The translations under genes and the position numbers were made by a program. This document shows positions 1 to 55,942 of a DNA stretch of 64,000 bases, piece after piece. Position 1 is the stretch's first letter. Every line of letters begins with the position of its first letter. The stretch is from Tequatrovirus NIC06P2. The DNA is taken from the sequence record OZ035760.1, one strand, 5' to 3'. The notes beneath the pieces were generated by a model. That model searched no databases and was not told where the DNA came from. It was given only the letters and a program-made list of their open reading frames with translations.

Positions 1-26
1 AACAGTTTGACCTAAAAAGAATTTCA

Positions 27-314
27 TTAGAACCTCATTTGAAAACCGTGCGATTTAACATTACCGCCGCCAATATCAGAAATGTTAATTTCACGCGCAA
101 TTGAAGGGTCAATGTCAATTTCGCGATTGAGTTTAGTGATAGCTAAAGTATCACGCCCATTTACTGTACGGAATTCTAAAGGACAAACCACATCAACGTA
201 GTTTTTAATCGATTCGCTAGTAGGTTGCAAATGTGCAGGAAGGTCTTTAGGTGCCTTTGAGAAAACAACTTCACAGAAATTTTTGCGGGTATCAAAATAA
301 GTAGTCATAAACAT
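27..314 (-). CDS. hypothetical protein (gene 30.x-region ORF)
   Basis: Minus-strand ORF; preferred start MFMTTYF (GAGG Shine-Dalgarno ~9 nt upstream). The 112-aa track ORF would read through the hairpin at 332-345. Confidence 0.5.
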   Translation of the reverse strand: MFMTTYFDTRKNFCEVVFSKAPKDLPAHLQPTSESIKNYVDVVCPLEFRTVNGRDTLAITKLNREIDIDPSIAREINISDIGGGNVKSHGFQMRF

Positions 315-331
315 AGTATTTTCCTCAGTAA

Positions 332-345
332 GGGGCCGAAGCCCC
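332..345 (+). other. GC-rich GNRA-loop hairpin (ggggc-cgaa-gcccc) followed by T-rich tract on plus strand
   Basis: Perfect 5-bp stem with cgaa loop seen directly; lies between two minus-strand ORFs; the U-run is on the plus (antisense) side. Confidence 0.4.
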
Positions 346-354
346 TGTTTTATT

Positions 355-720
355 TTAAATATCAAATTCGTTAAGAACTACATCAAAGATTGCTTCAAGA
401 TGCTCAGGTTTAGCTCTGTTACTCAAAATATGACGAATCCAAGTTTTAACCAGAAGCTTACGATTAGCGCCATTCCAGCAAGGATGGGTCCCTAAATCGC
501 GTTGACGAAAATCATCATCCAGAGCGATTTTAAAGTTGGAACCTTCCATTGTGATTGAAACCGTGATGCCATTTTCAAATCGCATATAAACGTAATTAGG
601 AGTCATATACTGTTCAATTTCGCATACTGATCCATTTTGATGTTTCCAAAGGCAAATAGTATCAATAGAACCTGCAATACCATTAGAAACATATTTACGT
701 TCAAAGTTGATGTAGTTCAT
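355..720 (-). CDS. hypothetical protein (121 aa)
   Basis: Complete ORF in six-frame track, co-oriented with flanking early genes; early promoter immediately upstream. Confidence 0.55.
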   Translation of the reverse strand: MNYINFERKYVSNGIAGSIDTICLWKHQNGSVCEIEQYMTPNYVYMRFENGITVSITMEGSNFKIALDDDFRQRDLGTHPCWNGANRKLLVKTWIRHILSNRAKPEHLEAIFDVVLNEFDI

Positions 721-754
721 TTTTATTCTCCGAGATGTTTAATTGCGGTACAGG

Positions 755-786
755 TATATAATATCATATCCTGTACCAAAGTAAAC
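755..786 (-). promoter_or_regulatory. candidate T4-type early promoter (-35 GTTTAC, A/T-rich -10)
   Basis: Reverse complement reads GTTTAC-17 nt-TATTAT just upstream of the ORF starting at 720. Confidence 0.45.
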
Positions 787-788
787 AA

Positions 789-1121
789 TTATTTTACTAC
801 TTTCCAGTGCTTCATGTCAAGTTTACCAACTTTTTTCATCTTCTCAATCAAACGTTCGGCACGTTGGCGAGCTGTAACATAATACCATTCGCCTAATTCA
901 TTTTGTTCAATTTTTCCAACGATTACTGTATTCAATTCATAAATCCAACCAGTAAAGAAATTATGAACTTGGATTGTAAAGGTGAAATCTGTTCCCATAC
1001 CTTCTGTTGTTTCTACTTCAATAATATCACCTTCAACTGCCATTAAGAACCACATAGTTTCATCATATTTACCATTGAAGCATTTAGTTTTAACTGCAGC
1101 GTTCAGATTAATCGTTTTCAT
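789..1121 (-). CDS. hypothetical protein (110 aa)
   Basis: Complete minus-strand ORF. Confidence 0.55.
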   Translation of the reverse strand: MKTINLNAAVKTKCFNGKYDETMWFLMAVEGDIIEVETTEGMGTDFTFTIQVHNFFTGWIYELNTVIVGKIEQNELGEWYYVTARQRAERLIEKMKKVGKLDMKHWKVVK

Positions 1122-1202
1122 TTTATTCTCCTTTGTTTGTGTAAGATAATACTATCACAAAGGAACCATACTGTAAACAACTTTGTGCAATCTTTGGAAA
1201 AT

Positions 1203-1226
1203 AAAAAAGGACTCCCGAAGGAGTCC
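1203..1226 (-). terminator. intrinsic terminator (ggactcc-cgaa-ggagtcc stem-loop plus U-run on minus strand)
   Basis: 7-bp perfect stem with GNRA loop followed by T6 on the minus strand, directly after the stop of ORF 1232..1408. Confidence 0.7.
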
Positions 1227-1231
1227 TCAAC

Positions 1232-1408
1232 TTATGCTTTCTGCTTACCAAAACGAGAAGCATCATCTCGAAGAACCGCACGTGCTCGGCGCATGATCTT
1301 CTCAACAGTTTGATTGATACGAGAGTTCGACCCACGCTTGTAACCAGCGCGTTTAGAATCACCAACTTTCTTTTCAACTGCTTTCTTTGCTTTAGCTTGT
1401 TTTGCCAT
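1232..1408 (-). CDS. small basic protein (about 58 aa from MAKQAKAKK; alternative start at 1450)
   Basis: ORF with Lys/Arg-rich sequence ending right at a strong terminator; start choice uncertain. Confidence 0.45.
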   Translation of the reverse strand: MAKQAKAKKAVEKKVGDSKRAGYKRGSNSRINQTVEKIMRRARAVLRDDASRFGKQKA

Positions 1409-1696
1409 TATAAATTCTCTTTTAAATGAAAATGCAGGACTTATTGGCATTGCCTGCGCAAGCCCTCAAGGGGAACATAGGTTTTGAATATTTACCGACA
1501 GGATAACCATAAACCTCGTCATCATACCACCAAGACTTACACAGATAACACTTTTCTGACGCATGATAGTAACATTCAAGAGGTACACCATAAAACTGCC
1601 GGGGTCTTAAAACTATAATGATTCGCAAATCATTAATCAGACAGTTCGATGGCTCCTCGATTTTAGCTCACACTAAGGCAGTGAATCTCCAATAAA

Positions 1697-1945
1697 TTAC
1701 TTCAGTGTTACCACAAAGTGACGAACTGCTTTTCGTGCAGCAGAAGCCAAAGGCTTAGCATATTTAAGTTCATCTTTTTCCTGAAGCTCAGCAGCTAATG
1801 CAGTTTGAGCAGGATTCAGATGTTTGAAATAACGCAGGATTTCAAGAGCTTCGGCTTCAACATCAATAGATGCGCCATAGTTTTCGTGACCATTATTCCA
1901 TGCGTTTCGTTGCAGTTCAAGAGCGTGTTGTAATTGTTTAATCAT
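1697..1945 (-). CDS. rIII: rIII lysis-inhibition accessory protein (82 aa)
   Basis: Size and sequence match recalled T4 RIII; position between 30.x ORFs and gene 31 as in T4. Confidence 0.85.
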   Translation of the reverse strand: MIKQLQHALELQRNAWNNGHENYGASIDVEAEALEILRYFKHLNPAQTALAAELQEKDELKYAKPLASAARKAVRHFVVTLK

Positions 1946-2092
1946 TTAAAAATTCTCGTTAGAGATTAAAACTCGGTAGTCACGTTCTTCTGAATTTCAT
2001 CTTCTTTCGACAGATCTCTCAGTTGTAGACTACCACGTAGAATTGTTCGGTTAACTTATTATTCCGACACCCAATTCATATTATTATTTATA

Positions 2093-2428
2093 TCACTTAT
2101 AAAGACACGGAATAGCTTTATAGTGACAGGTAACAAATTTTTGTTTAATTTCTTTTGGCTGCTTAAGACCCAGAGCTACAAAAGGATGTGGAACATTTCG
2201 AATTTGACCAACTGGAAGAGAAGTCAAATCACCAACTTCGCAGAAACCTTCAGGAACATCAGGACCGACAGAGTGAACTACACACAGTTCAGGAACTTCA
2301 CCTTGGACACGTTTACCAATAATAAGTCCTGATTCTGTGACTTCTTCATCACCAGCTTGTGCAGGTTCAGAAACTAAAATAACATATTCACCGACAGCAC
2401 GAATTGGTAGCTGTTGTACTTCAGACAT
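2093..2428 (-). CDS. 31: gp31 co-chaperonin (GroES analogue, 111 aa)
   Basis: Length and synteny (rIII-31-cd) as in T4; sequence consistent with T4 gp31. Confidence 0.85.
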
Positions 2429-2484
2429 TGTTTTTCCTTTTTGTTAACAGATGAATTAATAATAACAAATAATTCTTAAAGCAT

Positions 2485-2793
2485 TTATTTACCAATAAAT
2501 TGGAGTAAATGCTCAACTTTCATACCATTAACAGAAATCAATTTGTCAATAGAAAAACCTCGCCATGCACCAAGTTCAACATCAAATACTGGAATCATGT
2601 CAGTAGATTCTTTCCGAGTAGATTCAGTTAATTTACCAGTTTGCATGGTTGGCATAAAGTCTGCGTCACGAGTACCTTTCATAGTACGAATAGTACCATC
2701 AGACTTTTCAAAAACTACGTTTGAAACACCCATGGACAATTTAGTTTTCAAAATTTCACGAATTGCTACTTTCTGCTCAGTTGTCAGTTTCAT
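2485..2793 (-). CDS. hypothetical protein (31.1 position, 102 aa)
   Basis: Complete ORF between gene 31 and cd. Confidence 0.55.
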   Translation of the reverse strand: MKLTTEQKVAIREILKTKLSMGVSNVVFEKSDGTIRTMKGTRDADFMPTMQTGKLTESTRKESTDMIPVFDVELGAWRGFSIDKLISVNGMKVEHLLQFIGK

Positions 2794-3033
2794 TTATTTA
2801 CCTATCACAGTTTTAATATGAGTTGTTCCACGTTCTTTAAGGGTGGAAAGTAATTTTTGGCATTTTTCTAAATCAGATTTCCAACTATATGGTCTATCAA
2901 TACTAGTCCAATCAGTTTTATAATACTGTTTCCATTTAGAGAAAAAATATTTCTTATACTCTACAGCAAATGAGATGTTCTCATTAGAATAAGAACTAAT
3001 TGCTGTGAGCTTTACCAAACGAAATTTCATCAT
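2794..3033 (-). CDS. hypothetical protein (31.2 position, 79 aa)
   Basis: Complete ORF abutting cd. Confidence 0.5.
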   Translation of the reverse strand: MMKFRLVKLTAISSYSNENISFAVEYKKYFFSKWKQYYKTDWTSIDRPYSWKSDLEKCQKLLSTLKERGTTHIKTVIGK

Positions 3034-3611
3034 TCACCACAGAATTCGTTGATATTTTCCCAGTTTAACTTATTCAAGTTTTTCTTAGGAACATTAAACA
3101 CTTCAATACCTGCATTTCGCAAAATATCATCCCAACCAGGTTTATTTTTGTCGTATGTTTCGCAATAAACTAGTTTTTTAATTCCAGATTGAGCTATCGC
3201 TTTTGCGCAATCCGGACATGGAGAAAGTGTTACATACATAGTAGCACCTTCAATAGAAGAACCATTTCGTGCAGCAAACAAAATTGCATTTAGTTCAGCA
3301 TGAATTTCATTTTTAGATGACCATTCCGAGTGAGCACTACGATGTTCTTTTGCCAAGACAAAACGATCAGTTGAACCAAATGATACGCATTCAGGCTTAT
3401 GGCCTTGAATGATAGTATGTTTAGGCTTATTCAACAACCATCCTTGCTCAGCAGCATAATCACAACAGTTCACACCCCCTGCGGGTGAACCATTATACCC
3501 AGTAGAAATAATACGTCCATTCTTTTCAATTACTGCTCCTACCTTCCAGGAGCAACATTTTGATTCTTGTGATACTAAATATGCAATTTGAAGTACTGTA
3601 CTCGCTTTCAT
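3030..3611 (-). CDS. cd: dCMP deaminase (193 aa)
   Basis: Cytidine/deoxycytidylate deaminase zinc-binding signature (HAE...PCxxC) and T4 Cd length; synteny. Confidence 0.9.
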   Translation of the reverse strand: MKASTVLQIAYLVSQESKCCSWKVGAVIEKNGRIISTGYNGSPAGGVNCCDYAAEQGWLLNKPKHTIIQGHKPECVSFGSTDRFVLAKEHRSAHSEWSSKNEIHAELNAILFAARNGSSIEGATMYVTLSPCPDCAKAIAQSGIKKLVYCETYDKNKPGWDDILRNAGIEVFNVPKKNLNKLNWENINEFCGE

Positions 3612-3946
3612 TTCATAATCACCAGATAAGCAGATTTAGCAGTTTCAACACGATAAATTTCGTGACGAAGTTTAGTTATACTTTTAATAATAGAACTAAT
3701 TATATTCTGCCCATCTTTAAAGCGGTTTTTCTTGTCAATAAAAATTGCGCCAATCATCTTTTTGTGAAGCTCAACTGGATACTTCGTCACAATAATAGCA
3801 TCATATACAGAAGGATGAATACTATTCACCAGAGTATCATTCATTAAAGTTATTCTAATGAACTGCGCTGTTTCAGAATCAAGCGCTCTATGATCGCCAG
3901 TATCATTTTCAAGACAATTATCAATTATATCAGTTAAATTCATCAT
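3608..3946 (-). CDS. hypothetical protein (cd.x region, 112 aa)
   Basis: ORF translationally coupled to neighbours (overlapping stop/start). Confidence 0.5.
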   Translation of the reverse strand: MMNLTDIIDNCLENDTGDHRALDSETAQFIRITLMNDTLVNSIHPSVYDAIIVTKYPVELHKKMIGAIFIDKKNRFKDGQNIISSIIKSITKLRHEIYRVETAKSAYLVIMK

Positions 3947-4179
3947 AGTACGCCATACACCCTTTGTGCTTCAACTAATCCATCAAAATCCAATTTGAGA
4001 TGTGTTATTTGGTCACCATCACCTGGATTCACAATTACTAATACTGAACGAGGAGTTTCGGTAATAACGCGAACCGATGTTTCTGGAAATCGTTCAGAAA
4101 CCTTATTTACCAATTCCTGAGCAAATAGTTTAACTTTTTCTTGGAATTCTTTAACAGTAATTGGTTTTTCACTTAGCAT
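3943..4179 (-). CDS. hypothetical protein (78 aa)
   Basis: Complete ORF; early promoter upstream. Confidence 0.5.
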   Translation of the reverse strand: MLSEKPITVKEFQEKVKLFAQELVNKVSERFPETSVRVITETPRSVLVIVNPGDGDQITHLKLDFDGLVEAQRVYGVL

Positions 4180-4204
4180 TTTGTTTTCCTCATTTGTTTT
4201 GGTA

Positions 4205-4239
4205 GAGCTATAATATCACAACTCTACCATAAAGTAAAC
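4205..4239 (-). promoter_or_regulatory. candidate early promoter (GTTTAC -35)
   Basis: Reverse complement GTTTAC-17 nt-ATATTAT upstream of ORF starting at 4179. Confidence 0.4.
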
Positions 4240-4241
4240 TA

Positions 4242-4517
4242 TTAAATTGCTTTGAATTCTGATGTCTGCGATTCAAAACGAATATCACCTTTGATGACTA
4301 ACTCAGCGTCAAGACCGAATACGACAATGATATGCGCGGAACCTGGATACAGCGTAATGGCAATAGAATCCACCTGGTCTGGAAGCAAAGTGTTCAATAC
4401 ATGAGTCACTTGAGCATGAATTCGAAGCTCGGCTGCGTTATCAAGCTTTTCAAACATATTATTAGCGATAATTTGGCTAAAAACTACTTCTACGATTTTA
4501 GAATAAGTCGGAAACAT
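4242..4517 (-). CDS. hypothetical protein (91 aa)
   Basis: Complete ORF. Confidence 0.5.
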   Translation of the reverse strand: MFPTYSKIVEVVFSQIIANNMFEKLDNAAELRIHAQVTHVLNTLLPDQVDSIAITLYPGSAHIIVVFGLDAELVIKGDIRFESQTSEFKAI

Positions 4518-4519
4518 AT

Positions 4520-4712
4520 TTACCTCACATAATTTTCTTCAAGCCAATCAATAACATCCAACGCATTATCAAAAGTTGAACCATCTACTTTTTCTTCTGT
4601 TTCATAATCAAGAACATCTAAGCCTAATCTTCCGTTAACAATAGGCCATAAACAAAATAGATATTTCTTTTCTTTTTCAATTTTATCACAAAGACGATAA
4701 ATCTTTTCTAGG

Positions 4713-4720
<8 letters not shown>
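4520..4720 (-). CDS. hypothetical protein (66 aa)
   Basis: Complete ORF. Confidence 0.45.
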
Positions 4721-6135
<1,415 letters not shown>

Positions 6136-6369
6136 TTATTTTTTCTCAACCAATGATTGAATATAATCATGCAGGTCTTTAGATGCTTTACCCCACTTAT
6201 TTTGATATTCATTTTTGAGATTAGCGCGTGATTGAGCTAATAAAACATCATTAGTTGGAGGTAAAGATTCTAATCGCTGAATCTGGCGTCCATAAATCAT
6301 TGCAGCCATCTCGGATTCATAAATCAATCCTTTAAGATGTTCAAATTGATGCCATGAAATCATTTGCAT
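6136..6369 (-). CDS. hypothetical protein (77 aa)
   Basis: Complete ORF. Confidence 0.5.
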   Translation of the reverse strand: MQMISWHQFEHLKGLIYESEMAAMIYGRQIQRLESLPPTNDVLLAQSRANLKNEYQNKWGKASKDLHDYIQSLVEKK

Positions 6370-6659
6370 TTATCCTCTTTTAACTCTTGACGATAATAAC
6401 ATATCATAGTTTTCTGGTCATGTACATATCGTTTTACATCATTAAGCCAAATACGAAATTCCTGGGAATCTTCAAATGGCATACCGACCCAAGCTTTACC
6501 ATCGATAACTTTAACTTGCCAAGATAGTTTAGCTTCATCATATGACTTTATTTGTACAGGCCAATTAGGATGAACTGTTTCTTTCTTTACTTCTAGAGGC
6601 TTTGTCGAACAACCAACTAGAAGACCAATAGATAATATTACTGCTGATAGTTTAATCAT
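6360..6659 (-). CDS. putative lipoprotein (99 aa; signal peptide with LVGC lipobox)
   Basis: N-terminus MIKLSAVILSIGLLVGCSTKP has hydrophobic core and lipobox Cys. Confidence 0.55.
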   Translation of the reverse strand: MIKLSAVILSIGLLVGCSTKPLEVKKETVHPNWPVQIKSYDEAKLSWQVKVIDGKAWVGMPFEDSQEFRIWLNDVKRYVHDQKTMICYYRQELKEDKCK

Positions 6660-7009
6660 TTAGAAAGGTCCTGGATGTCTTCTGCGAACTTGTTGAAGGA
6701 GTTGTTGATTTGTTTTTCAACCAATCCTGGCTTATGAGCCACCACATCCGCCTTCTTTGCGTCTTTGCGCAGTTTTTCATTTTCACGCTCAATAGCAGCA
6801 ATTGCCTCACGATTTTTATTATTCATCGCATCAATATAATTATACTGAATTCGCAAATTATTTAATGCTAAGGCGTTTTCATTGGCCGTTTTTGTAATTT
6901 CAGTAACTGATGTTTCTAATCTTTCTACCTTATTTTTTAAAATAATAGATGTTCCGCCAAATGCTATTACAAGTAATAGCAATCCAGCTGTAAAATTACT
7001 TACATGCAT
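6656..7009 (-). CDS. hypothetical membrane-anchored coiled-coil protein (117 aa)
   Basis: N-terminal hydrophobic helix (AGLLLLVIAFGG) followed by charged helical region. Confidence 0.5.
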   Translation of the reverse strand: MHVSNFTAGLLLLVIAFGGTSIILKNKVERLETSVTEITKTANENALALNNLRIQYNYIDAMNNKNREAIAAIERENEKLRKDAKKADVVAHKPGLVEKQINNSFNKFAEDIQDLSK

Positions 7010-7506
7010 AAAGTTTTAATAACCTCTATAATATCGTCTTGAGAAAGACCGTTAATTAAAATATGATGTTCAGCTGGAGATTTAGAAATTTTAAAGCATG
7101 CCTCAACATCTTCTGCCATATCCGATGCACTACGATTTGGATTACTAATACCAAGGCGGTGTTTTCCCGTCAAAGGATTAACGATGATATAGCATTTGCA
7201 GCTATTGATATGAACATTGGGTTGAGTCTGATTAATGAACACTTCACAATCATACTTAGCGAGTTGATTTTCTAAAAAGACTTTCATCTCTTCAACCGCA
7301 TCAGGAAGCATATCACGGGCTTGCTCAAGACGACGATTTCGATATTCTTTAATGGTCGTTTTCCGCTTGACTTGCTTAGCTAAATCTTTCTTAAGATCAG
7401 TGATATATCCAACTCGACGATTTCCTTTGAATACAGAAATCCCATCTGTAGTATCACCGTATGCTTCAACGACCATTTCAGTAGTAATAAGCTGCAAATC
7501 CATCAT
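7000..7506 (-). CDS. alc: Alc, inhibitor of host transcription (168 aa)
   Basis: Size and position (pseT region-alc-rnlA) as in T4; sequence consistent with T4 Alc. Confidence 0.8.
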   Translation of the reverse strand: MMDLQLITTEMVVEAYGDTTDGISVFKGNRRVGYITDLKKDLAKQVKRKTTIKEYRNRRLEQARDMLPDAVEEMKVFLENQLAKYDCEVFINQTQPNVHINSCKCYIIVNPLTGKHRLGISNPNRSASDMAEDVEACFKISKSPAEHHILINGLSQDDIIEVIKTLCM

Positions 7507-7530
7507 AAAGTCCTCATGTTATGTCAGTAA

Positions 7531-7564
7531 GACTACTATAACACAACACGAGGGACTTGTAAAC
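7531..7564 (-). promoter_or_regulatory. candidate early promoter
   Basis: GTTTAC on minus strand with TATAGT -10 upstream of alc. Confidence 0.4.
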
Positions 7565-7567
7565 AGC

Positions 7568-9155
<1,588 letters not shown>

Positions 9156-9159
9156 AATA

Positions 9160-9177
9160 AAATGGGCCTTGCGGCCC
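9160..9177 (-). terminator. hairpin (gggcc-gcaa-ggccc) plus short U-tract after nrdB
   Basis: 5-bp GC stem with tetraloop between nrdB stop and denA start. Confidence 0.5.
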
Positions 9178-9182
9178 ACTCC

Positions 9183-9685
9183 TTAAAAATATTTTTTAAA
9201 ACTCATCATAACTTTATCATCAACATCATTATCAATCTGTGCAACAAGGTAAGATGACAGTTCTACTTCTTGTGGCGCGGATTGAACATTATCAGAATTA
9301 AGATATTCACGAATCCAAGGATATGGATGTTTAACCGGAGCATCGGTAATTGGGCATGGAAGACCACACTGTTTCATACGAGATACAGTTAAGTAATCAA
9401 TAAAGCTCCACATGCTATTTGTATTTAATCCAGGAACATCGCCATCTTTAAATAAATGAACTGCCCAATCTTTTTCTTGGCGGTTAACTTCCATGAAAAT
9501 ATCAACTGCTTCTTGTTCACACTCTTGAGCAATTTTAACCCATTCATCGCCATCAGTGCCAAGTTGAAGTTGACGAATAATATATTGAGTGCCTTTAAGG
9601 TGAAGCTGCTCATCACGTGCAATGAACTTCATAATCTTGGCATTACCTTCCATGATTTCCATATTCTTGTGGAAGTTAAAGGTAC
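9183..9685 (-). CDS. nrdB: ribonucleotide reductase small subunit NrdB, exon 2
   Basis: Encodes ...TFNFHKNMEIMEGNAKIMKFIARDEQLHL..., matching the C-terminal half of class Ia RNR beta. Inferred 3' splice site follows an intron-terminal G at 9686. Confidence 0.75.
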
Positions 9686-10776
9686 CGTTATGTTCGATTG
9701 AGCTCGCTAATTCTCAACCCGTTCTCTTATGAACTGCTACATATTACTATGCAGACCAGACTATATCACAATCCCAGAGGGATTCTCCCCATTTCGAGTC
9801 GCTTGACCCTACGTCCGAAGACTAGTCGTTGAACCTTGCTTTGCAATTGTCGCCGTGCCATCGTTTATATGTTGATGGTGATAAATCTTTCTTATCACAA
9901 TATGGACAATTCAATTGAATTCTATTTGGATTTAATTTACATCTGTCATTATGTTTTAGATAAAATCCAGGACCTTTACCAATGTGACCGCAGAAATCAC
10001 ATGTGATTTCTTTTTGTGCAGGATGGGTCCCGTTCTTAACCATTTCTAATGTTTTTGCTGATGTTCTTTTCTTATGGTCTTCTGACAAGAAATGATGTGA
10101 ACCGTCATTTACCCGTTTTGATTGAGTTTCTGACTGCATTTTACCACCGCAAAATACATGAGTACCTTCTTTTATAGCTGCAATATTGCGTTCTTTAACT
10201 TTTGCAATATGCTCAGCTTGTTGAAAATTATGTATACCTAATGCAACTCTATTTAAATTAGATTTACGCTGTATTTCACCGTCTAAAAGATGAAATGTAC
10301 CATTTTCTATCTTAGATTTAATAGAGGCAATATTTTTAGCTCGTACTTCAGGGATATTAAAAATCTGGATTTCTCTAGATTTTGCGGCTTTAGAAGCTAA
10401 TTCAGAAATTTCTTCAGGAGAATATTTCATTCTAAGCTTTATAGCATGACAAGCCTGGTAATCTTTTTGAGCTAAATGTATATCATAATGTTCCTGTATA
10501 GAAAGGCACATCAAATTATCTAAATCATTATTTTCACGGTTACCGTCTTTATGATGGATTTCGTATGTTCTTCCATCAGAATCTTTAGGTATAGGTCCGT
10601 TAGCATCTATCCAAATTTTTCTATAGTTCAATTGTGCATCCTCTTAAAAGTATAATCATATTTATATTATACTAATTAAAGGTGCAAGCAAAACCTTGGC
10701 TGCTAGTTTTCCTATAAAGGACTTTCCAGCAATTAAAGGAGTTTTCGATAAACGTTACCGTTTAAAGGCGCATTTT
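9686..10776 (-). mobile_element. group I intron in nrdB (about 1.09 kb) carrying a homing endonuclease ORF
   Basis: In-frame stop directly after ...RFYVSFA in exon 1. Joining after the exonic U at 10777 to 9685 restores the conserved motif YVSFAC-TFNF. The intron contains a 269-aa HNH ORF. Confidence 0.7.
9822..10631 (-). CDS. I-TevIII: intron-encoded HNH homing endonuclease, I-TevIII-like (269 aa, full length)
   Basis: HNH motif (EIHHKDGNRENNDLDNL...H) plus C-terminal Cys/His zinc-finger-like region; location inside the nrdB intron. Confidence 0.8.
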   Translation of the reverse strand: MNYRKIWIDANGPIPKDSDGRTYEIHHKDGNRENNDLDNLMCLSIQEHYDIHLAQKDYQACHAIKLRMKYSPEEISELASKAAKSREIQIFNIPEVRAKNIASIKSKIENGTFHLLDGEIQRKSNLNRVALGIHNFQQAEHIAKVKERNIAAIKEGTHVFCGGKMQSETQSKRVNDGSHHFLSEDHKKRTSAKTLEMVKNGTHPAQKEITCDFCGHIGKGPGFYLKHNDRCKLNPNRIQLNCPYCDKKDLSPSTYKRWHGDNCKARFND

Positions 10777-11452
10777 ACGCAAAAGATACATAAAAACGAA
10801 TAGCTTCTAAGGCATTAATAACGTGTAAACAGAGGTAAAGAGACTTCATTAAAGCACGTTTAGCTTCGGCTTCTTGTTTAATAGCTCGGTTTAAACGAAA
10901 GTCGGCATCAGGAGATTCTTTAGCTAGTTCTACAAATTCTTTAGCATTTTCCCATTCACGGGTTTTAACCAAGACATCATCATAATAGCGACCGATAGAT
11001 TCAGCACGTTTCATGATAGCTTCATCTAATACAATCTCATCAAATACCTTCGATGGATCAGTATAAAGATTTCGCATGATATGAGTATATGAACGACTGT
11101 GAATAGTTTCACTAAAAGTCCACGTAGCAACCCATGTATCAAGACTTGGGTCTGAAATTAATGACATAAGTACAGCAGACGGTGCACGACCCTGAATGCT
11201 ATCTAGAAGTGATTGATACTTCAGGTTATTAGTAAAAATATCCTGCTGATATTGAGGAAGCTTATTAAATTGTGCAGCATCCATCATCAAGTTTACTTCT
11301 TCAGGACGCCAGAAAAATGATAAGGACTTCTCTGTAAGTTCTTCAAATACTCGATGCCGTTGAATATCATAACGCGCAATACCAAGACCTGAACCAAAAA
11401 ACATAGGTTCTTTTAAAACATCAACTGGATTTGTATTAAAAACTGTGCTCAT
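10777..11452 (-). CDS. nrdB: ribonucleotide reductase small subunit NrdB, exon 1
   Basis: Encodes the N-terminal half of RNR beta ending ...ALEAIRFYVSFA; di-iron/tyrosyl radical region is recognisable. Confidence 0.8.
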
Positions 11453-11503
11453 AAATTTTCCACTTAGTTAATAGTTGGTGACTCGTCCGTGAGTCAAATT
11501 ATA

Positions 11504-13768
11504 TCATAATTTACAGGATGAACAATCTTCAGCTTTTGGAGTTTCTATTTCATAATCATCAGTACCAGAACCATCGCGGGTATTATGATAATAGAAATTT
11601 TTTCCGCCAAAATACCAGAAATACAAAAGGTCATCAATCATTATTGACATTGGAACCTTTCCTTTTGGAAAAATCTGCGGGTCATAGTATGTATTCGCTG
11701 AAGCTGATTGACATACCCATTTCAGCATAATAGCTACCTGCGTAAGATAAGGTTTATTACCTTTCTTAGCTAATTTCCACGTATAATCATAGAGGTCTAT
11801 GTTATGTTCAATATTGGGCACGACTTGATTAAAGGAACCCTCTTTTGATTCTTTAACAGAGACTGGTCCACGTGGAGGCTCGATACCGTTTGTACTGTTA
11901 GAAACTTGGGAAGATGACTCACATGGCATAAGTGCTGATAATGTGCTATTACGGATGCCAAAGAGCTTAAGGTCTTCCCGCAACGCCGACCAGTCACAAA
12001 CGTATTTTGGAGCTGCGATTTGGTCAATCTTTTTATTGTACCAGTCGATAGGTAATTCGCCTCGAGACCAACGAGTGTCTGAATAATATTCGCAAGGTCC
12101 TTTTTCTTTGGCGAGCTTAATGGATGCTTTAATGAGTCCATACTGTAATCTCTCAAATAGTTCATGTGTTAAATCGTTAGCATCTTCATAAGAAGCAAAG
12201 TTACTTGCTAGCCAAGCTGCATAGTTGGTAACACCTACACCGAGGTTACGACGCTTTTTAGCTTTTTCTGCTTCAGGAACTGGATATCCTTGGTAATCCA
12301 ACAGATTATCAAGAGCACGAACTTGAACTTCTGCCAATTCATTAATTTTATCTTGGTCTTGCCAGTCAAAATTATCTAATACGAATGCAGAAAGAGTACA
12401 CAATCCAATTTCAGCATCAGGGCTATTCACATCATTTGTTGGAATAGCAATTTCACAACACAAGTTACTCTGACGAATAGGTGCCTTTTCACGAATAAAC
12501 GGAGTATAGTTATTCGTATTATCAATGAACTGTACATAAATCCTTGCTGTTCCTGATCGTTCAGTCATGAGCAATTCAAATAGTTCACGAGCTTTAATAC
12601 GCTTTTTACGAATATTAGGGTCTTTTTCTGCTGCTTCGTATAATTCACGGAAACGGTCTTGGTCTTTAAAATAAGAATAATAAAGCTCTCCACCCATTTC
12701 ATGTGGACTGAACAAAGTAATGTAATCGTTCTTTCCGAATCGTTCCATCATCAAATCATTCAGCTGAACACCATAATCCATATGACGAATGCGGTTTTCT
12801 TCTACGCCTTTGTTATTTTTCAAAACGAGAAGATTTTCAACTTCCAAATGCCAAATAGGATAATAAGCAGTAGCAGCGCCGCCACGAATTCCACCCTGTG
12901 AGCATGATTTAACAGCAGTCTGAAAATGTTTCCAAAAAGGAATAACACCAGTATGGCGTACTTCACCCATGCCAATCTTAGAACCTTCGGCACGAATCAT
13001 ACCAACGTTAATACCAATTCCAGCGCGTTTAGAGATATATTCAACAATTGAAGCGGAAGCCTTATTGATAGACTTCAATGAATCTCCTGCCTCAATAACA
13101 ACACATGAACTAAACTGCCGAGTCGGAGTACGGCAACCAGCCATAATAGGAGTTGGCAATGAAATCTGTCGAGTAGATACTGCTTCATAAAAACGAATAA
13201 CATGTTTTAATCTATCAACAGGTTCATCTTGATGCAATGCCATTCCAATAGTCATAAATGCAAACTGTGGAGTTTCATAAATTTGACCAGTGGTTTTATC
13301 TTTAACTAGATATTTTTCTTTTAATTGCATCGCCCCGGAATAAGTAAATTCCATATCCCGCTCGTGCTTAATTTTTGATTCTAAAAATGTAATTTCTTCT
13401 GCTGAATATTTTGACAATAATTCAGGGTCGTATTTACCTTCATTTACACAGTAAGAAATATGGTCAATAAATGAACGTGGTTCATACTGCCCATAAACAT
13501 GCTTACGAAGAGCAAACATTAAACAACGTGCAGCTACATATTGATAATCAGGCTCTTCAACCGAAATAGAATTCGCAGCGGCCTTAATGACAATAGTCTG
13601 AATATCATCAGTTGTCATTCCATCACGGAGATAAGATTTAATATTTTCATATAATTCATAAGGATCTACTGATGTTCCTTCAGCTGCCCAAGATAAAACT
13701 TTAATAATTTTTTGTGGGTCAAAGCTCTGAGAAACACCACTACTTTTGATAACATTAATTAATTGCAT
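11504..13768 (-). CDS. nrdA: ribonucleotide reductase large subunit (754 aa)
   Basis: Class Ia RNR alpha signatures (ATP cone, active-site Cys region NLCCEI, C-terminal CxxC...CSSC); T4 NrdA length. Confidence 0.95.
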   Translation of the reverse strand: MQLINVIKSSGVSQSFDPQKIIKVLSWAAEGTSVDPYELYENIKSYLRDGMTTDDIQTIVIKAAANSISVEEPDYQYVAARCLMFALRKHVYGQYEPRSFIDHISYCVNEGKYDPELLSKYSAEEITFLESKIKHERDMEFTYSGAMQLKEKYLVKDKTTGQIYETPQFAFMTIGMALHQDEPVDRLKHVIRFYEAVSTRQISLPTPIMAGCRTPTRQFSSCVVIEAGDSLKSINKASASIVEYISKRAGIGINVGMIRAEGSKIGMGEVRHTGVIPFWKHFQTAVKSCSQGGIRGGAATAYYPIWHLEVENLLVLKNNKGVEENRIRHMDYGVQLNDLMMERFGKNDYITLFSPHEMGGELYYSYFKDQDRFRELYEAAEKDPNIRKKRIKARELFELLMTERSGTARIYVQFIDNTNNYTPFIREKAPIRQSNLCCEIAIPTNDVNSPDAEIGLCTLSAFVLDNFDWQDQDKINELAEVQVRALDNLLDYQGYPVPEAEKAKKRRNLGVGVTNYAAWLASNFASYEDANDLTHELFERLQYGLIKASIKLAKEKGPCEYYSDTRWSRGELPIDWYNKKIDQIAAPKYVCDWSALREDLKLFGIRNSTLSALMPCESSSQVSNSTNGIEPPRGPVSVKESKEGSFNQVVPNIEHNIDLYDYTWKLAKKGNKPYLTQVAIMLKWVCQSASANTYYDPQIFPKGKVPMSIMIDDLLYFWYFGGKNFYYHNTRDGSGTDDYEIETPKAEDCSSCKL

Positions 13769-16407: not shown

Positions 16408-16650
16408 TTAAACAGACTTTTTCACAATTTTCCAATCAGCTTTAAACTGTTCAACGTCAGAATGGTAAATCCAGAATCCTGCGCTTTCTCCATCCTCATA
16501 AAGAGGGCATCCATCACATTCACCTTCCCATCCCATACCACGTAAAAGATGTTCAGCTTTTTCAACAAGTTCAGAATCTTTACCGATGATATTAAAATAC
16601 CATTTACCTCTAACTTCTGAATCTTTGATGCTTTGGCGTTGTAATCTCAT
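16408..16650 (-). CDS. hypothetical protein (80 aa)
   Basis: Complete ORF with early promoter/leader upstream. Confidence 0.5.
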   Translation of the reverse strand: MRLQRQSIKDSEVRGKWYFNIIGKDSELVEKAEHLLRGMGWEGECDGCPLYEDGESAGFWIYHSDVEQFKADWKIVKKSV

Positions 16651-16705
16651 TTTATTCTCCTTAGTTGATAGGGTAATAGTATCACACTACTACCCTGATG
16701 TAAAC
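16651..16705 (-). promoter_or_regulatory. early promoter and leader (GTTTAC...ATACTATTACCCTATCAACTAAGGAG)
   Basis: Conserved promoter/leader cassette repeated at other loci in this window. Confidence 0.5.
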
Positions 16706-17070
16706 TACTTTTTGAAAGTTTTTCGCAAAAGTTCAATGATTTCGTCTACATTGTTTTCATCTACAATGCAGTGAATTTTTGTTACGCCATAAACCTGGTC
16801 TTTGACTTCATCTTCTTCAGAAGTCGGTTCTTTATACTCACGAAAACAATGAAATTCGTCTTCACAAACGTTAAAGTAAAAATGCTTTCCATTTGCACAT
16901 TCAATGTGTTTTATTGCTCTAAATCCATCAGCAAAGAAAGCTTCTTTAACTTCAAACCACCCGCCATTTTCTTCAATAATTTTAACTATTGATGAATTAG
17001 AACGTGGGCGATAATTAATAAATGTATCAATAAGTCTTGGAACAAGTTCATACTTTTTGCCAATATACAT
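16705..17070 (-). CDS. hypothetical protein (121 aa)
   Basis: Complete ORF. Confidence 0.5.
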   Translation of the reverse strand: MYIGKKYELVPRLIDTFINYRPRSNSSIVKIIEENGGWFEVKEAFFADGFRAIKHIECANGKHFYFNVCEDEFHCFREYKEPTSEEDEVKDQVYGVTKIHCIVDENNVDEIIELLRKTFKK

Positions 17071-17341: not shown

Positions 17342-17415
17342 ATTATTTTTCCCCTTTAATTATCAGCAGTATTGCCGATAGTTGTATAGTACCATGGAAG
17401 GACAAGGATGTAAAC
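17342..17415 (-). promoter_or_regulatory. early promoter and leader (GTTTAC ... GGTACTATACAACTATCGGCAAT)
   Basis: GTTTAC -35 with downstream conserved leader; follows the gene 32 terminator. Confidence 0.5.
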
Positions 17416-17440
17416 CGTTTTGTGAAAAAATTTTTGAAAT

Positions 17441-17465
17441 AAAAAAGGGGACCTCTAGGGTCCCC
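17441..17465 (-). terminator. intrinsic terminator downstream of gene 32
   Basis: ggggacc-ctag-aggtcccc stem-loop followed by T6 on the minus strand directly after the gene 32 stop. Confidence 0.8.
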
Positions 17466-25755: not shown

Positions 25756-25760
25756 ATTGA

Positions 25761-25783
25761 GGGAGCCTTCGGGTTCCCTTTTT
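25761..25783 (+). terminator. intrinsic terminator after gene 35
   Basis: gggagcc-uucg-gguuccc hairpin followed by T5. Confidence 0.7.
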
Positions 25784-34073: not shown

Positions 34074-34144
34074 TTTCTAATCTCCGTAATTCTGTATCAG
34101 TAGTTGATAGTTGTATAGTACCACAGTATGCTTTGGTTGTAAAC
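34074..34144 (-). promoter_or_regulatory. early promoter and leader upstream of motA
   Basis: GTTTAC -35 with GGTACTATACAACTATCAACTAC leader; near-duplicate of the cassette at 17342-17415. Confidence 0.5.
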
Positions 34145-34168
34145 CGTTTTGTGAAAAAAATTTAAAAT

Positions 34169-34194
34169 AAAAAAGGGAGAGCCTCGGCTCTCCC
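34169..34194 (-). terminator. intrinsic terminator
   Basis: gggagagcc/ggctctccc stem followed by T-run on the minus strand. Confidence 0.7.
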
Positions 34195-37235: not shown

Positions 37236-37293
37236 TTTCTGTTCCTCCGTAGTTGATAGGGTAATAATACCACAGAGGAACAGTCTTGTAAAC
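37236..37293 (-). promoter_or_regulatory. early promoter and leader (GTTTAC...GGTATTATTACCCTATCAACTACGGAGGAAC)
   Basis: Conserved cassette shared with 16651-16705 and 37743-37799. Confidence 0.5.
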
Positions 37294-37478
37294 AACTTTT
37301 TTAAAAATATTCGTAATAAATGTGAATACCAACTACTACCGCTGAAACCTGTGCAACCCACCACGCACAAGCAATAAGTACAGAATTCATAATTTTCATA
37401 ATAACCTCATTACAAAAGTAAATGTTAAACAAATTACTGGAATACTAATTAACCAAACAAAACACCACCACAGTGAAC

Positions 37479-37742: not shown

Positions 37743-37799
37743 TTTTGTTCCTCCGTAGTTGATAGGGTAATAGTACCACGGTCCTTGTGGTATGTAAAC
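37743..37799 (-). promoter_or_regulatory. early promoter and leader (GTTTAC...GGTACTATTACCCTATCAACTACGGAGGAAC)
   Basis: GTTTAC -35, 17-nt spacer, conserved leader with GGAGG Shine-Dalgarno. Confidence 0.55.
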
Positions 37800-37815
37800 T
37801 AGTTTATGAAAATTT

Positions 37816-38373
37816 TTAGATGGAAAGATACCATCCGTTGTAGTTGCTTTTTCGCACTACCTTACGAAGGTCTTCTCTATCCCCAATGAACTTCGGAGTG
37901 TACTGGATGACACCTGGATGAATTTCTTTAGTGTTGAATATAATTATACAGTCCGCGACTTGATGATTTAGAATGGGCCCTAGATTTATTCCAGAACCGT
38001 ATGGATACTCTCCGCTGCATCCTGTTGTTACCGAAATCCAACGTGAGTCAGTTTGATGTGTCTTAACTTCTACACGAAGCCCACAGTATTTTGGATGTGC
38101 TAAAACATCCCATGCATATGTGTACGGATCATCGACATCTTCTTGGCCTTTATTGACATATCCGCTTAGCCAATCTGCCACAAAAAACTCTGCGTACACA
38201 GCGATACGGCATCTTTCGATAACTTCTGCCTTATCCTGATTTGGGTTCTGTTTTAAAGAGTATCTTACAGTATCAGCAATTTTGACCTTCATTTCATTGG
38301 TTAAATCGCTGTTCGATAGAGTAAATGTCGGAATCTGAAATAGTCTCTGTAACCCAGGATTCGTTTTCTGCAT
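37816..38373 (-). CDS. denB: endonuclease IV (185 aa)
   Basis: Matches T4 DenB length and sequence. Confidence 0.85.
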   Translation of the reverse strand: MQKTNPGLQRLFQIPTFTLSNSDLTNEMKVKIADTVRYSLKQNPNQDKAEVIERCRIAVYAEFFVADWLSGYVNKGQEDVDDPYTYAWDVLAHPKYCGLRVEVKTHQTDSRWISVTTGCSGEYPYGSGINLGPILNHQVADCIIIFNTKEIHPGVIQYTPKFIGDREDLRKVVRKSNYNGWYLSI

Positions 38374-38441
38374 TTAAACTTTCCTTTATGTCGGAATCAC
38401 TGATATTCATATAATAAATCATAATTTCTCTTAAAACAAAA

Positions 38442-38453
38442 GGGCCGAAGCCC
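38442..38453 (-). terminator. hairpin gggc-cgaa-gccc with flanking U-run (after denB.1-position ORF)
   Basis: Stem-loop followed by TTTTGTTTT on the minus strand; identical hairpin recurs at 38670-38681. Confidence 0.55.
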
Positions 38454-38458
38454 TTATT

Positions 38459-38653
38459 TTATTTGAATTGTGCAATTCTTTTCTCTAGACATTCAGCATA
38501 AGATTTCATTGAGATGAACTGTGAAAGTAACAGTTCTTGCTCAACTGCGTTAACTGTTAGAAACTTTGTGCTTTCTAAAAATTTGCTCAGTGCATTAATT
38601 TTGAGCATTAATTGATCGTATTCTTCTTTTACTCGTGCTTGATAACCTAACAT
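38459..38653 (-). CDS. hypothetical protein (64 aa; denB.1 position)
   Basis: Complete ORF bracketed by two identical hairpins. Confidence 0.5.
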   Translation of the reverse strand: MLGYQARVKEEYDQLMLKINALSKFLESTKFLTVNAVEQELLLSQFISMKSYAECLEKRIAQFK

Positions 38654-38669
38654 AATTTTCCTTAGTTAA

Positions 38670-38681
38670 GGGCCGAAGCCC
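38670..38681 (-). other. hairpin gggc-cgaa-gccc at the rIIB stop (second copy)
   Basis: Same 12-nt hairpin with matching flanks (aagggccgaagcccttattt); no U-run on the minus strand. Confidence 0.45.
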
Positions 38682-39620
38682 TTATTTAAATTGTTCAGTA
38701 ACGTCTTCAACTACTTCGTATTGGCAGGTACGCATTTTAGCATCGTTGTAATCAATCGGAATTGATACTACATCACGCGGATGTACTTTAACTTTTACAA
38801 CTCGGCTGGTTGAACTGCCAAAGTGACGAATATAAGATTTAGAACACACATGCAGACCACGAGAACAAGTTTGTGTATCATCGTCATTCACACGAGTACG
38901 TGGCATTTTAACTACTTTACCCGGACTGTTATCAAAGGTGTTTGAGTGACAGTCAAAGTAGTTGTCACGAACTACTTTCCAAGCATAGAAGTAACCATCT
39001 TCGGTGATTTCAATATCGTTTGCTACCAAGAAATCAAAGAGTCGAGATACCGCTTTTTGGCTTGGGTTTTCCAACAGATTTTCCAGGAACGGAAAATAAA
39101 ATTCAAAGTTTTCACCTTTTTCCATCGAGTCAAGAATACGATCAATTAAACCAGACCGCAATTCAATATTTTGATAGAACAAGCTTCCACCTTCAATTCG
39201 AACATCACCGGAAATATATTTTTCAACAGCGCGACGAACGTTAATTTTTTGCGCAGCTTCTTCCAGCTTATCCGCTACAAGCAGATTAAGAATTTCCTGG
39301 AAGTTTGAATGAGTATTAGGAGTTGCGTTATAAGTTACACCGTCAACAGTAATTGAAATGAATTTTTTAGATGCATTCCAAATAATGTCAGATTTAGCAA
39401 CCGGAGCAATAACTGCATCGCTATTAACTTTAACTGTAATATCACCGCTAATAGTAACTTTAGGGCGTTTAGCTTCTTCAGCATTTTTCAAAACACGACG
39501 GATTGTGTCAACCGATACACCTTGCCAATCAGCCAATTCCTGTTGGGTGTAATTACCACTTGAGTACAGCTTAACAATTTCAGCTTGTTCGTTTTTGGTC
39601 AGGCATTTAATATTGTACAT
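38682..39620 (-). CDS. rIIB: rIIB (312 aa)
   Basis: Matches T4 rIIB length and sequence; adjacent to rIIA. Confidence 0.95.
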   Translation of the reverse strand: MYNIKCLTKNEQAEIVKLYSSGNYTQQELADWQGVSVDTIRRVLKNAEEAKRPKVTISGDITVKVNSDAVIAPVAKSDIIWNASKKFISITVDGVTYNATPNTHSNFQEILNLLVADKLEEAAQKINVRRAVEKYISGDVRIEGGSLFYQNIELRSGLIDRILDSMEKGENFEFYFPFLENLLENPSQKAVSRLFDFLVANDIEITEDGYFYAWKVVRDNYFDCHSNTFDNSPGKVVKMPRTRVNDDDTQTCSRGLHVCSKSYIRHFGSSTSRVVKVKVHPRDVVSIPIDYNDAKMRTCQYEVVEDVTEQFK

Positions 39621-45719: not shown

Positions 45720-45803
45720 GTTGTTTTCTGTATCAGTAGTTGATATTGATATAGTACCATAATCAACTACTGATGTATATAGTTTTATGAAAAAATTTAA
45801 ACT

Positions 45804-54177: not shown

Positions 54178-54515
54178 TCACAAGATGTGGATGAACAACT
54201 AGAATCACAAGAACTTCCACATGAATCGCCCGTCCATACATGAACAGGAACATTAGTATCATATGAATCAGAACTAGACTGTGTATTCTGTGCATTAGAT
54301 GATGTAGTAGGTACTGACCAACGCCAAGGATTTTTATAATATTCTTGGGCTTCTTCATAAGTCATAGTGACTGCTTCTACTGTTCCATCTCCCATATAAA
54401 CATACTCAACTACAGTTAAAGGAAGGTCGTCATTTGAAATAGGAACTACACCTTCCCCAGGAACTGTAGAGAAAAAATCCGTAAAGAAATTTTTAAACCA
54501 ATTAAAGATAAACAT
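54174..54515 (-). CDS. hypothetical protein with Cys/Ser-rich C-terminal tail (113 aa)
   Basis: C-terminus ...[19 protein letters not shown]; hydrophobic aromatic N-terminus. Confidence 0.5.
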
Positions 54516-54721
54516 TACAAAAAGCCTCTTTTGAATTCAACTTGCTTCTCGCCATAATCGTATCGAATCTCTGCATTAAATTCAACAGAACCATCTGCGT
54601 ACATCATAAATGAATGCACAACAACTTCTGTAGACCATGGTTGCAATTCATATTTCTTCATTACGTGTCGTGAAATGATAATATCTAAATCTTCATTCGG
54701 TTTAATCCAACGATTTAACAT
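54515..54721 (-). CDS. hypothetical protein (68 aa)
   Basis: Complete ORF with early promoter upstream. Confidence 0.5.
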   Translation of the reverse strand: MLNRWIKPNEDLDIIISRHVMKKYELQPWSTEVVVHSFMMYADGSVEFNAEIRYDYGEKQVEFKRGFL

Positions 54722-54778
54722 AGCGCTCTCCTCTATAAGATAATTCTATTATACCATACTCATTTTGATATGTAAACC
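54722..54778 (-). promoter_or_regulatory. candidate early promoter (GTTTAC at 54773-54778)
   Basis: Reverse complement GTTTACATATCAAAATGAGTATGGTATAATAG; follows the soc terminator. Confidence 0.5.
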
Positions 54779-54785
54779 ATTTAAA

Positions 54786-54809
54786 TGAAAAAAGGACTCC
54801 CGAAGGAGT
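54786..54809 (-). terminator. intrinsic terminator downstream of soc (same hairpin as at 1203-1226)
   Basis: ggactcc-cgaa-ggagtcc followed by T-run on the minus strand. Confidence 0.75.
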
Positions 54810-54819
54810 CCTTGAATTA

Positions 54820-55056
54820 TTAACCACCTATTTCTGTTGGCGTAAACATTGCAGCATTCTTAGTTTTCCAGTCAGCTGCATCAGAAACTACAGTAGAATA
54901 TGCTGCCTTTTCAGAAGGAAAGGTCTGATAATGAGAATCTGCAATACGATGCTCGTTAGAATAGATTTCAAACGGAACAGAAACTTCCATACCTTTAACT
55001 TCTTTGCCTTCACCTGCTGGATGAGTAAAGGTCTTGATGTTAACGAAACCGCCCAT
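54820..55056 (-). CDS. soc: small outer capsid protein Soc (78 aa)
   Basis: Conserved Soc motifs (YVNIKTF..., HYQTFPSEKAAYSTV) and late promoter upstream. Confidence 0.9.
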   Translation of the reverse strand: MGGFVNIKTFTHPAGEGKEVKGMEVSVPFEIYSNEHRIADSHYQTFPSEKAAYSTVVSDAADWKTKNAAMFTPTEIGG

Positions 55057-55087: not shown

Positions 55088-55095
55088 TATTTATA
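55088..55095 (-). promoter_or_regulatory. late promoter TATAAATA for soc
   Basis: Plus-strand TATTTATA is TATAAATA on the minus strand, about 32 nt upstream of the soc ATG. Confidence 0.7.
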
Positions 55096-55942
55096 AACCA
55101 TTTTCAAATCTCTTTATCATGTTTATATAATTTTCGTCAGGATAACCTAGGCTAACTGCTAACTTTCTAAAATTGACATATTTAGGTTTGTTGTTATTAA
55201 TCCATAATTCTCTAAGCTCTTTTTCATAATTCCATTTAAGTTGATTTCTGCGTGCAATTTTGCTTAAAGTTTTTCCTTTAGCTTTTAAAGCTTTTTCAGA
55301 TGACTGTTTTAATTTTTGAATATTTAAAACTTCTTCTATAGATAAATTATTTTCCTTTGAATATCTTATGCAAAAATCTTTTACTACGGCTATTAGGCAA
55401 TTTTTGTGAGTACCTAAAATTTCTGGATTATTTTCTTCAACTAAAATTCCCCAATATCTTCGATAGCGAGGCATATCCCTTGAAATCCAGTCATTATACC
55501 AAAAATCAAAGTTGGAATACATGAAAGATTTTCTTTTGCGAAGAGTATCTTGGTTTATCCATTGCTCACGTTTATCAGCCCATAACTTAATAGTAAAGTC
55601 TTTCTCTAAGTCAGAAAGCTTCTTAAATTGCGAGCTATTTACTGAGGTCATTCTCTGGAATGCATTCAGCAATCCAAATCTTCCAGTTGAACATAAGAGA
55701 TAGTGAACATATATGTGTTGATATATTGGGAGATATACTCTATTCCAAGGATATGTTTTAAAATCACTGTACTCAGGAAATGCGCATTTAGGAAGTATAT
55801 GATGGGCTTCTGTTTTAGATTTAATGTGAGTGTTTAACTTATACTTATCTATAATTTTTAAATACTCATCTAAAAGTTCCCATTGCGGGAACTTTTCTTT
55901 AAGAGCAGATTTGAAATTAATATCCATTATCTTGACGTTCAA
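55091..55942 (-). CDS. putative free-standing HNH homing endonuclease (283 aa)
   Basis: HNH-like core (TEAHHILPK...N...H) near the N-terminus, basic C-terminal half; occupies the soc-56 spacer and overlaps the 3' end of gene 56. Confidence 0.5.
   Translation of the reverse strand: MNVKIMDINFKSALKEKFPQWELLDEYLKIIDKYKLNTHIKSKTEAHHILPKCAFPEYSDFKTYPWNRVYLPIYQHIYVHYLLCSTGRFGLLNAFQRMTSVNSSQFKKLSDLEKDFTIKLWADKREQWINQDTLRKRKSFMYSNFDFWYNDWISRDMPRYRRYWGILVEENNPEILGTHKNCLIAVVKDFCIRYSKENNLSIEEVLNIQKLKQSSEKALKAKGKTLSKIARRNQLKWNYEKELRELWINNNKPKYVNFRKLAVSLGYPDENYINMIKRFENGL

Follow-up and report, generated by a model that had tools for sequence, protein, structure and literature searches.

Two identical copies of a short sequence lie more than 50 kb apart in a 64,000-nt stretch of DNA from Tequatrovirus NIC06P2 (hereafter the window, meaning that whole stretch), which raises the questions of what the element does, why its two copies match and whether so distant a pair of direct repeats has any consequence for the genome. 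A preliminary description had seen in them a terminator hairpin of 24 nt that might serve as a substrate for homologous recombination or deletion and might represent a shared mobile module. We conclude that the element is an ordinary T4 terminator of a known kind: reference T4 carries it too, annotations of related phages list it, and it belongs to a type of cassette described in the literature.

The repeated hairpin and its gene context

A search of the window for the 24-mer AAAAAGGACTCCCGAAGGAGTCCT returned exactly two occurrences, both on the plus strand, at 1204-1227 and 54789-54812, confirming the verbatim repeat and shifting its original coordinates (1203-1226 and 54786-54809) by 1 and 3 nt, respectively. 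One additional identical base to the left of the 24-mer extends the repeat to 25 nt (Table 1), and the 25-nt copies are in direct orientation with a start-to-start spacing of 53,585 bp. No third copy of the 24-mer was present in the window when up to three mismatches were allowed, and two matches were obtained in none of 100 dinucleotide-preserving shuffles. The flanks outside the 25 nt are unrelated (38 nt align at 87%, beyond which matches are scattered), and neither copy of the repeat is accompanied by element ends, target-site duplications or flanking direct repeats. Megablast of both regions retrieved Tequatrovirus (T4-like) phages by the hundred, with identities of 95-99%, and reference T4 (NC_000866) carries an identical 25-mer after gene 30.9 and after soc, indicating that the repeat is a long-sequenced property of T4 itself. 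The chance that it is an assembly or sequencing artefact is negligible, since reference T4 has both copies and so do hundreds of relatives that were sequenced independently.

Reading the minus strand, the copies do lie where they had been placed, after a small basic ORF at 1232, which is gene 30.9, and after soc. Copy 1 follows the 30.9 stop codon by 3 nt and is upstream of 30.8, and copy 2 follows the soc stop codon by 6 nt and is upstream of mrh.2.

Table 1. Coordinates, strands and particulars of the features of the window discussed in the text.
Feature	Position	Strand	Particulars
Exact repeat, copy 1	1203-1227	not assigned	25 nt; plus strand reads AAAAAAGGACTCCCGAAGGAGTCCT
Exact repeat, copy 2	54788-54812	not assigned	25 nt; same as AAAAAAGGACTCCCGAAGGAGTCCT
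Terminator hairpin 1	1207-1228	-	GAGGACUCC-UUCG-GGAGUCCUU; 8 Watson-Crick pairs and 1 G-U pair, C(UUCG)G tetraloop
U-tract of terminator 1	1198-1208	-	UUUUUUAUUUU; first two U double as last stem pairs
Terminator hairpin 2	54792-54813	-	AAGGACUCC-UUCG-GGAGUCCUU; 9 Watson-Crick pairs
U-tract of terminator 2	54783-54793	-	UUUUUUCAUUU
Gene 30.9	1232-1408	-	58-aa basic protein; closed by terminator 1
Early-type promoter of 30.8	1149-1178	-	GTTTACA, 17 nt, TG-n-TAGTAT; TTTACA-17-TAGTAT spans 1177-1149
Gene 30.8	789-1121	-	Pfam Phage_30_8, E=7e-59; Shine-Dalgarno AAGGAG at 1128-1133, then ATG
soc (small outer capsid protein)	54820-55056	-	78 aa; Pfam Soc, E=8e-20; closed by terminator 2
Late-promoter consensus match	55088-55095	-	TATAAATA; upstream of soc
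Early-type promoter of mrh.2	54748-54777	-	GTTTACA, 17 nt, TG-n-TATAAT, 11/12; TTTACA-17-TATAAT spans 54776-54748
Gene mrh.2	54515-54721	-	Shine-Dalgarno GAGGAG at 54728-54733, then ATG
Early-promoter repeats	1123-1196, 16650-16723, 34089-34162, 37238-37311, 37744-37817, 45725-45798, others	-	repeat families
Gene 32 terminator	17447-17465	-	GGGGACC-CUAGA-GGUCCCC and U6; related to the second hairpin type
Plus-strand terminator	25759-25780	+	GAGGGAGCC-TTCG-GGTTCCCTT and T-tract; one G-U pair; same hairpin set
Further repeated UUCG hairpin family	318-355, 38427-38464, 38655-38692	-	(A)AGGGGC or AAGGGC-TTCG-GCCC(C)TT

The minus-strand RNA of each copy reads AGGACUCC-UUCG-GGAGUCCU followed by U6, with a C-G pair closing the UUCG loop (...CUCC-UUCG-GGAG...) and the U6 directly 3' of GGAGUCC in both cases; the base preceding AGGACUCC-UUCG-GGAGUCCUU on the minus strand is G or A. 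The predicted fold energies are -16.4 kcal/mol (z -4.0) for hairpin 1 and -15.1 kcal/mol (z -3.2) for hairpin 2, none of 200 shuffles yielded an equally stable fold, and a terminator scan picked up both hairpins. A T-tract on the plus strand is absent at both copies, indicating that the hairpins act in one direction only. The GGAG of the 3' arm, a candidate RegB cleavage site, is base-paired within the stem. The orthologous elements are already annotated in relatives: at the 30.9 site, phage wV7 has a rho-independent terminator on record for hairpin 1, and at the soc site, three overlapping annotations in phage Kha5h mark hairpin 2 as a rho-independent terminator. A search of the whole window with Rfam at gathering thresholds gave no hits, so the hairpins are covered by no known RNA family. 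If td and nrdB sit as they do in T4, this phage would be without the group I introns that T4 has in the two genes.

Very likely, each copy supplies the hairpin and the U-tract of a Rho-independent terminator acting on minus-strand transcripts, and the two owe their identity to selection and not to a recent event. The reading of the element as a terminator hairpin is borne out by the predicted fold, the U-tract, the position after stop codons, the annotation in relatives and the compensatory changes described below. Literature searches for direct 3'-end mapping of transcripts from 30.9 and soc gave no usable result, and we infer actual termination and mRNA stabilisation at both copies. In the proposed sequence of events, AGGACUCC-UUCG-GGAGUCCU would fold on leaving RNA polymerase, the C(UUCG)G tetraloop would aid fast nucleation of the hairpin, and the U6 tract after the stem would permit release of the transcript. 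Copy 1 would in this way end the early/middle transcripts of gene 31-rIII-30.9 and copy 2 those of soc, and the 3'-terminal hairpin probably also shields the upstream mRNA from 3' exonucleases.

Together with the sequence that follows it, each hairpin has the anatomy of a PeSL (promoter-early stem-loop) cassette. These cassettes were defined in RB49/phi1, with tests of terminator activity for the stem-loops (Arbiol et al., 2010; PMC2839356), and were extended to the T4/PST pair with the promoter consensus TTTACW-N17-TAYWAT (Comeau et al., 2014; PMC4122927). At both copies the order is stem-loop, sigma-70-like early promoter, Shine-Dalgarno sequence and ATG of the next gene; the promoter (-35) starts 29 nt after the hairpin at copy 1 and 15 nt after it at copy 2, and an upstream TG is present in both promoters. 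The promoter at copy 2 fits the consensus in full, and the -10 element at copy 1 (TAGTAT) fits it at five of six positions. The early promoter 15-29 nt past the hairpin would restart transcription for 30.8 or mrh.2, and since a terminator is followed by a restarting promoter, each site combines the two in one cassette, as in the PeSLs described in the literature. Upstream of soc there is, in addition, TATAAATA, a match to the established late-promoter consensus of T4.

Similar parts are found elsewhere in the window. Repeat families of 32-75 nt with 60-80% identity prove to be minus-strand T4 early promoters (GTTTAC...TATAAT types), and several of these repeats, including those at 17377-17451 and 34106-34180, directly adjoin terminator hairpins. 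The terminator on the plus strand (Table 1) presumably lies within the tail-fibre gene block, to judge from its T4 map position. In the further repeated UUCG hairpin family, the flanks of the three members are 68-82% identical over 38 nt, and two of the three copies are without a clear U-tract.

Conservation and mosaic boundaries at the two sites

We next consider the distribution of the element in related phages. A 40-nt query around copy 1 matched 1948 places in 1148 phage records, with two match places in most Tequatrovirus records among the matches listed. In soc and 30.9 loci of T4-like phages taken from IMG/VR, a hairpin with a U-tract is found at both sites across T4-like genera, and RNAalifold predicts the same 8-bp helix at each site. 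Compensatory double changes that keep the pairing occur in five of the eight pairs at the soc site (30 sequences) and in four of the eight at the 30.9 site (28 sequences). The loops are more variable than the stems and include UUCG, UACG, UCCG, AGAA, AUAU and the complement CGAA.

One form of loop variation stands out at either site: the perfect stem AGGGACTCC...GGAGTCCCT encloses TTCG in some phages and CGAA in close relatives (loci L108, L109 and L111 at the soc site; L141, L146 and L147 at the 30.9 site). Such loop flips are what an inversion of the entire palindrome would produce, and they take the UUCG tetraloop out of the RNA.

Both sites border gene replacements or deletions. Compared with T4 (locus L078), identity is 90-100% through mrh.2, its promoter and the hairpin, and drops to 50-70% exactly where the hairpin gives way to soc, the soc allele of the window encoding 78 aa that are 47% identical to the 81-aa Soc of T4. 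Further along, an ORF at 55091-55942 (283 aa) occupies the place of T4 segF, a GIY-YIG endonuclease gene; relatives have it listed as an HNH or homing endonuclease, and Pfam gave no match for the 283-aa product. At the other site, a 95%-identical relative (IMG/VR contig 2974742932, L023) is without the segment corresponding to window positions 357-1125 (30.8 and 30.7), the deletion beginning directly past the 30.9 cassette and ending beside another UUCG hairpin (331-346). Among phages at a greater distance, resemblance to the window stops just past the Shine-Dalgarno sequence and start of the 30.9 cassette, so that no counterpart of 30.8 is detectable there. This pattern of boundaries is what the PeSL model predicts for cassettes that act as linkers, and it bears on the single cassettes with their neighbours rather than on the pair 53.6 kb apart. 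PeSL cassettes have been proposed as recombination linkers in T4-type phages (PMC2839356 and PMC4122927).

Another rearrangement touches soc itself. In two T4-like contigs of 148-175 kb (L058 at 3733-5353, L073 at 1120-2737), soc is followed by a 504-aa ORF whose N-terminus is Soc-like by eye (motifs, with no score attached), and both soc and this ORF end in an identical GGACTCC-TTCG terminator, 1.6 kb apart. The arrangement points to a tandem duplication that took in both soc and its terminator.

Origin of the shared stem

The wide occurrence of the hairpin offers a first answer to the question of why the two copies match. A GGACUCC-type stem is carried at both sites across many T4-like genera and would be maintained by structural selection; the two hairpins would be alike because both sites have carried this stem under such selection. 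A long-standing shared sequence under structural selection fits the wide distribution of GGACUCC at both sites, albeit selection on structure alone does not fully account for the same stem at two non-homologous sites. Occasional copying of the hairpin between sites may have contributed to the identity.

How often the two sites agree bears on this contribution. The GGACUCC stem is common to both sites in 11 of the 23 T4-like contigs that hold both, and in four of these the loop matches as well. In Tequatrovirus, both sites have A-U as their eighth base pair, and in another lineage (contigs 2974556567, 2974573174 and 2706796299) both have G-C. Stems within a genome differ at 1.87 positions, compared with 2.46 in shuffled pairings (permutation, p ~0.03), a value uncorrected for relatedness, so that concerted evolution is only a hint. 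As a background, we used a degenerate IMG/VR scan with GGNNNCC-UUCG-GGNNNCC-UUUU, an arbitrary, non-random sample among the matches listed, in which the ACT stem (GGACTCC) accounted for two of the 66 perfect stems (~3%) among the matches listed. The notion that GGACTCC is the universally best stem is not supported by this count.

A second, distinctive hairpin type, AUGGGAACC-YUWGU-GGUUCCCAU, follows 30.9 in three phages, soc in another and gene 32 in yet another. Homology between sites never extends past the hairpin. As DNA it reads ATGGGAACC-YTWGT-GGTTCCCAT (loci L267, L268 on contig 2974496990, L269, L270 and L272).

These observations can be read as traces of copying, in which the hairpins form a small repeated set that is moved or homogenised by short-patch conversion, template switching at palindromes or PeSL exchange. 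We hold this reading as a tentative possibility; it concerns the origin of the identity and is compatible with terminator function. It would explain why the GGACTCC stem, at ~3% of the listed background, stands at both sites in 11 of 23 contigs, why the eighth base pair covaries between sites, why stems within a genome are slightly more alike and how the second hairpin type came to three kinds of site in different phages, and PeSL recombination has been demonstrated by inverse PCR in RB49/phi1 (PMC2839356). However, the sites differ in many genomes, for example in 2974742932 (GGAAUCC versus GGACUCC) and in the JS98-like group, homology goes no further than the hairpin and is flanked by neither element ends nor target duplications, and the permutation test ignores relatedness among the phages. 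The exact 23-mer AGGACTCCTTCGGGAGTCCTTTT also occurs in unrelated environmental phage contigs (L045, L046, L053/L062, L064/L070, L044/L065), which makes an independent origin possible. In these contigs it stands several times directly after large ORFs that resemble major capsid protein genes (by appearance, with no profile check), and in L044/L065 two copies of AGGACTCCTTCGGGAGTCCTTTT are 213 nt apart.

Convergence or coincidence would dispense with any exchange between the sites, given that function fixes the U-tract, the UUCG loop, its closing C-G pair and the complementary arm, leaving only about seven free stem positions. Stable UUCG hairpins number at least nine in the window, and near-identical hairpins occur in Felixounavirus and phiEa21-4-like phages, both of which, like the recurrence of the exact 23-mer in unrelated phage contigs, point in this direction. 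Yet we consider convergence unlikely as the source of the identity: GGACTCC was no general favourite among the listed perfect stems, and the stem is essentially absent from E. coli (inexact matches in 17 of 5426 genomes, exact matches in none) but nonetheless stands at both sites in roughly half of the T4-like genomes examined. Functional constraint could have produced the match by coincidence alone, but this explanation is not sufficient.

Going further than copying between two sites, a lineage-specific set of hairpins (GGACUCC-UUCG, GGGAACC-CUAGU and GGGAGAC-UUCG) might be copied among non-homologous intergenic sites (30.9, soc, gene 32 and others) through very short conversion tracts limited to the palindrome, together with the inversions that flip the loop from UUCG to CGAA, and thereby yield the identity seen in the window; we regard this as rather doubtful. 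A bolder form of the copying reading would invoke a phage factor that recognises the GGACUCC/GGAGUCC stem.

The suggestion of a shared mobile terminator module can be kept in part. The PeSL anatomy and the replacements and deletions that both sites border speak for it, whereas only the 25-nt hairpin and U-tract are common to the two sites, no ends or target duplications accompany them, and reference T4 has the same identity. What survives is a module in a weak evolutionary sense only, a small hairpin set that is reused, possibly by copying.

Recombination between the copies and comparison with known systems

Next, we asked whether the pair is a functional substrate for recombination or deletion, with crossover between direct repeats reshaping the genome. 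The repeats are direct, small patches of homology (<50 bp) are reported to be enough in T4 (Singer, 1982, as cited in PMC2839356), and closely spaced PeSLs recombine into mini-circles (PMC2839356). The gene content argues against it, as the T4 interval between the copies holds genes 31, 32, 59, 33, 34-38, t, motA, 52 and rIIB. By the established T4 map, T4 positions 1-13,500 hold rIIA, 60, 39 and more genes. With essential genes in the 53.6-kb interval and the rest of the genome in the other arc, either deletion would be lethal, and the reciprocal duplication would go beyond the capacity of the capsid, given headful packaging. Using two chimeric queries that represent the possible recombinant junctions, with a match threshold of at least 80% coverage, we found neither junction in the 508 and 506 phage records that contain the parental halves, and wherever a T4-like phage in IMG/VR showed the exact 23-mer, its flanks were not chimeric. 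Crossover between the two copies is thus highly improbable as a force on this genome, and the proposal of a recombination or deletion substrate was not upheld by the gene content of the interval, by some 500 genomes or by the comparison of flanks in related phages, carried out in silico. The pair has no recoverable recombination consequence.

Both elements are standard T4 terminators, covered by the concepts of the UUCG tetraloop and the PeSL and of little import for the window as a whole. The outcome is useful in the negative: the repeat does not point to an unstable genome, and it is no new mobile element. That a few hairpin types recur at different sites, with loop flips and mosaic boundaries, is of modest value for understanding shuffling in T4-type hyperplastic regions, and the reuse of hairpins is also of modest value in choosing well-insulated terminator parts.

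Among known systems, PeSL cassettes (PMC2839356 and PMC4122927) share with the present sites a stem-loop directly upstream of an early promoter, a Shine-Dalgarno sequence and the start of the next gene, and both present sites are situated in regions of early genes, next to places where relatives have lost or replaced genes. In the recombination described in those papers, the PeSLs involved lie between a few hundred bp and a few kb from each other, whereas the present pair is separated by 53.6 kb with essential genes between and no recombinants found; identity is, moreover, limited to the stem-loop, the promoter parts having only their consensus in common. Canonical Rho-independent terminators of E. 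coli and its phages resemble the two hairpins in their G+C-rich stem of 8-9 bp, 4-nt loop, immediate U6 and position just past a stop codon, but the present sequence is essentially phage-specific, with no exact copy in the 5426 complete E. coli genomes, and a host-derived terminator was rejected. The T4 gene 32 terminator of the window has the same architecture with an early promoter next to it and differs in its stem and in its pentaloop, and the related hairpin type GGGAACC-CUAGU occurs at the 30.9 and soc sites of other T4-like phages. A further likeness is to the C(UUCG)G hairpins of T4 mRNA, in which UUCG tetraloops were first discovered (Tuerk et al., 1988, as recounted in PMC4371310). 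The C-G-closed UUCG loop and the intercistronic position in T4-type mRNA are shared and there is no difference of substance; the two hairpins belong to this class, and their identical stem, at 8-9 bp, is unusually long for it.
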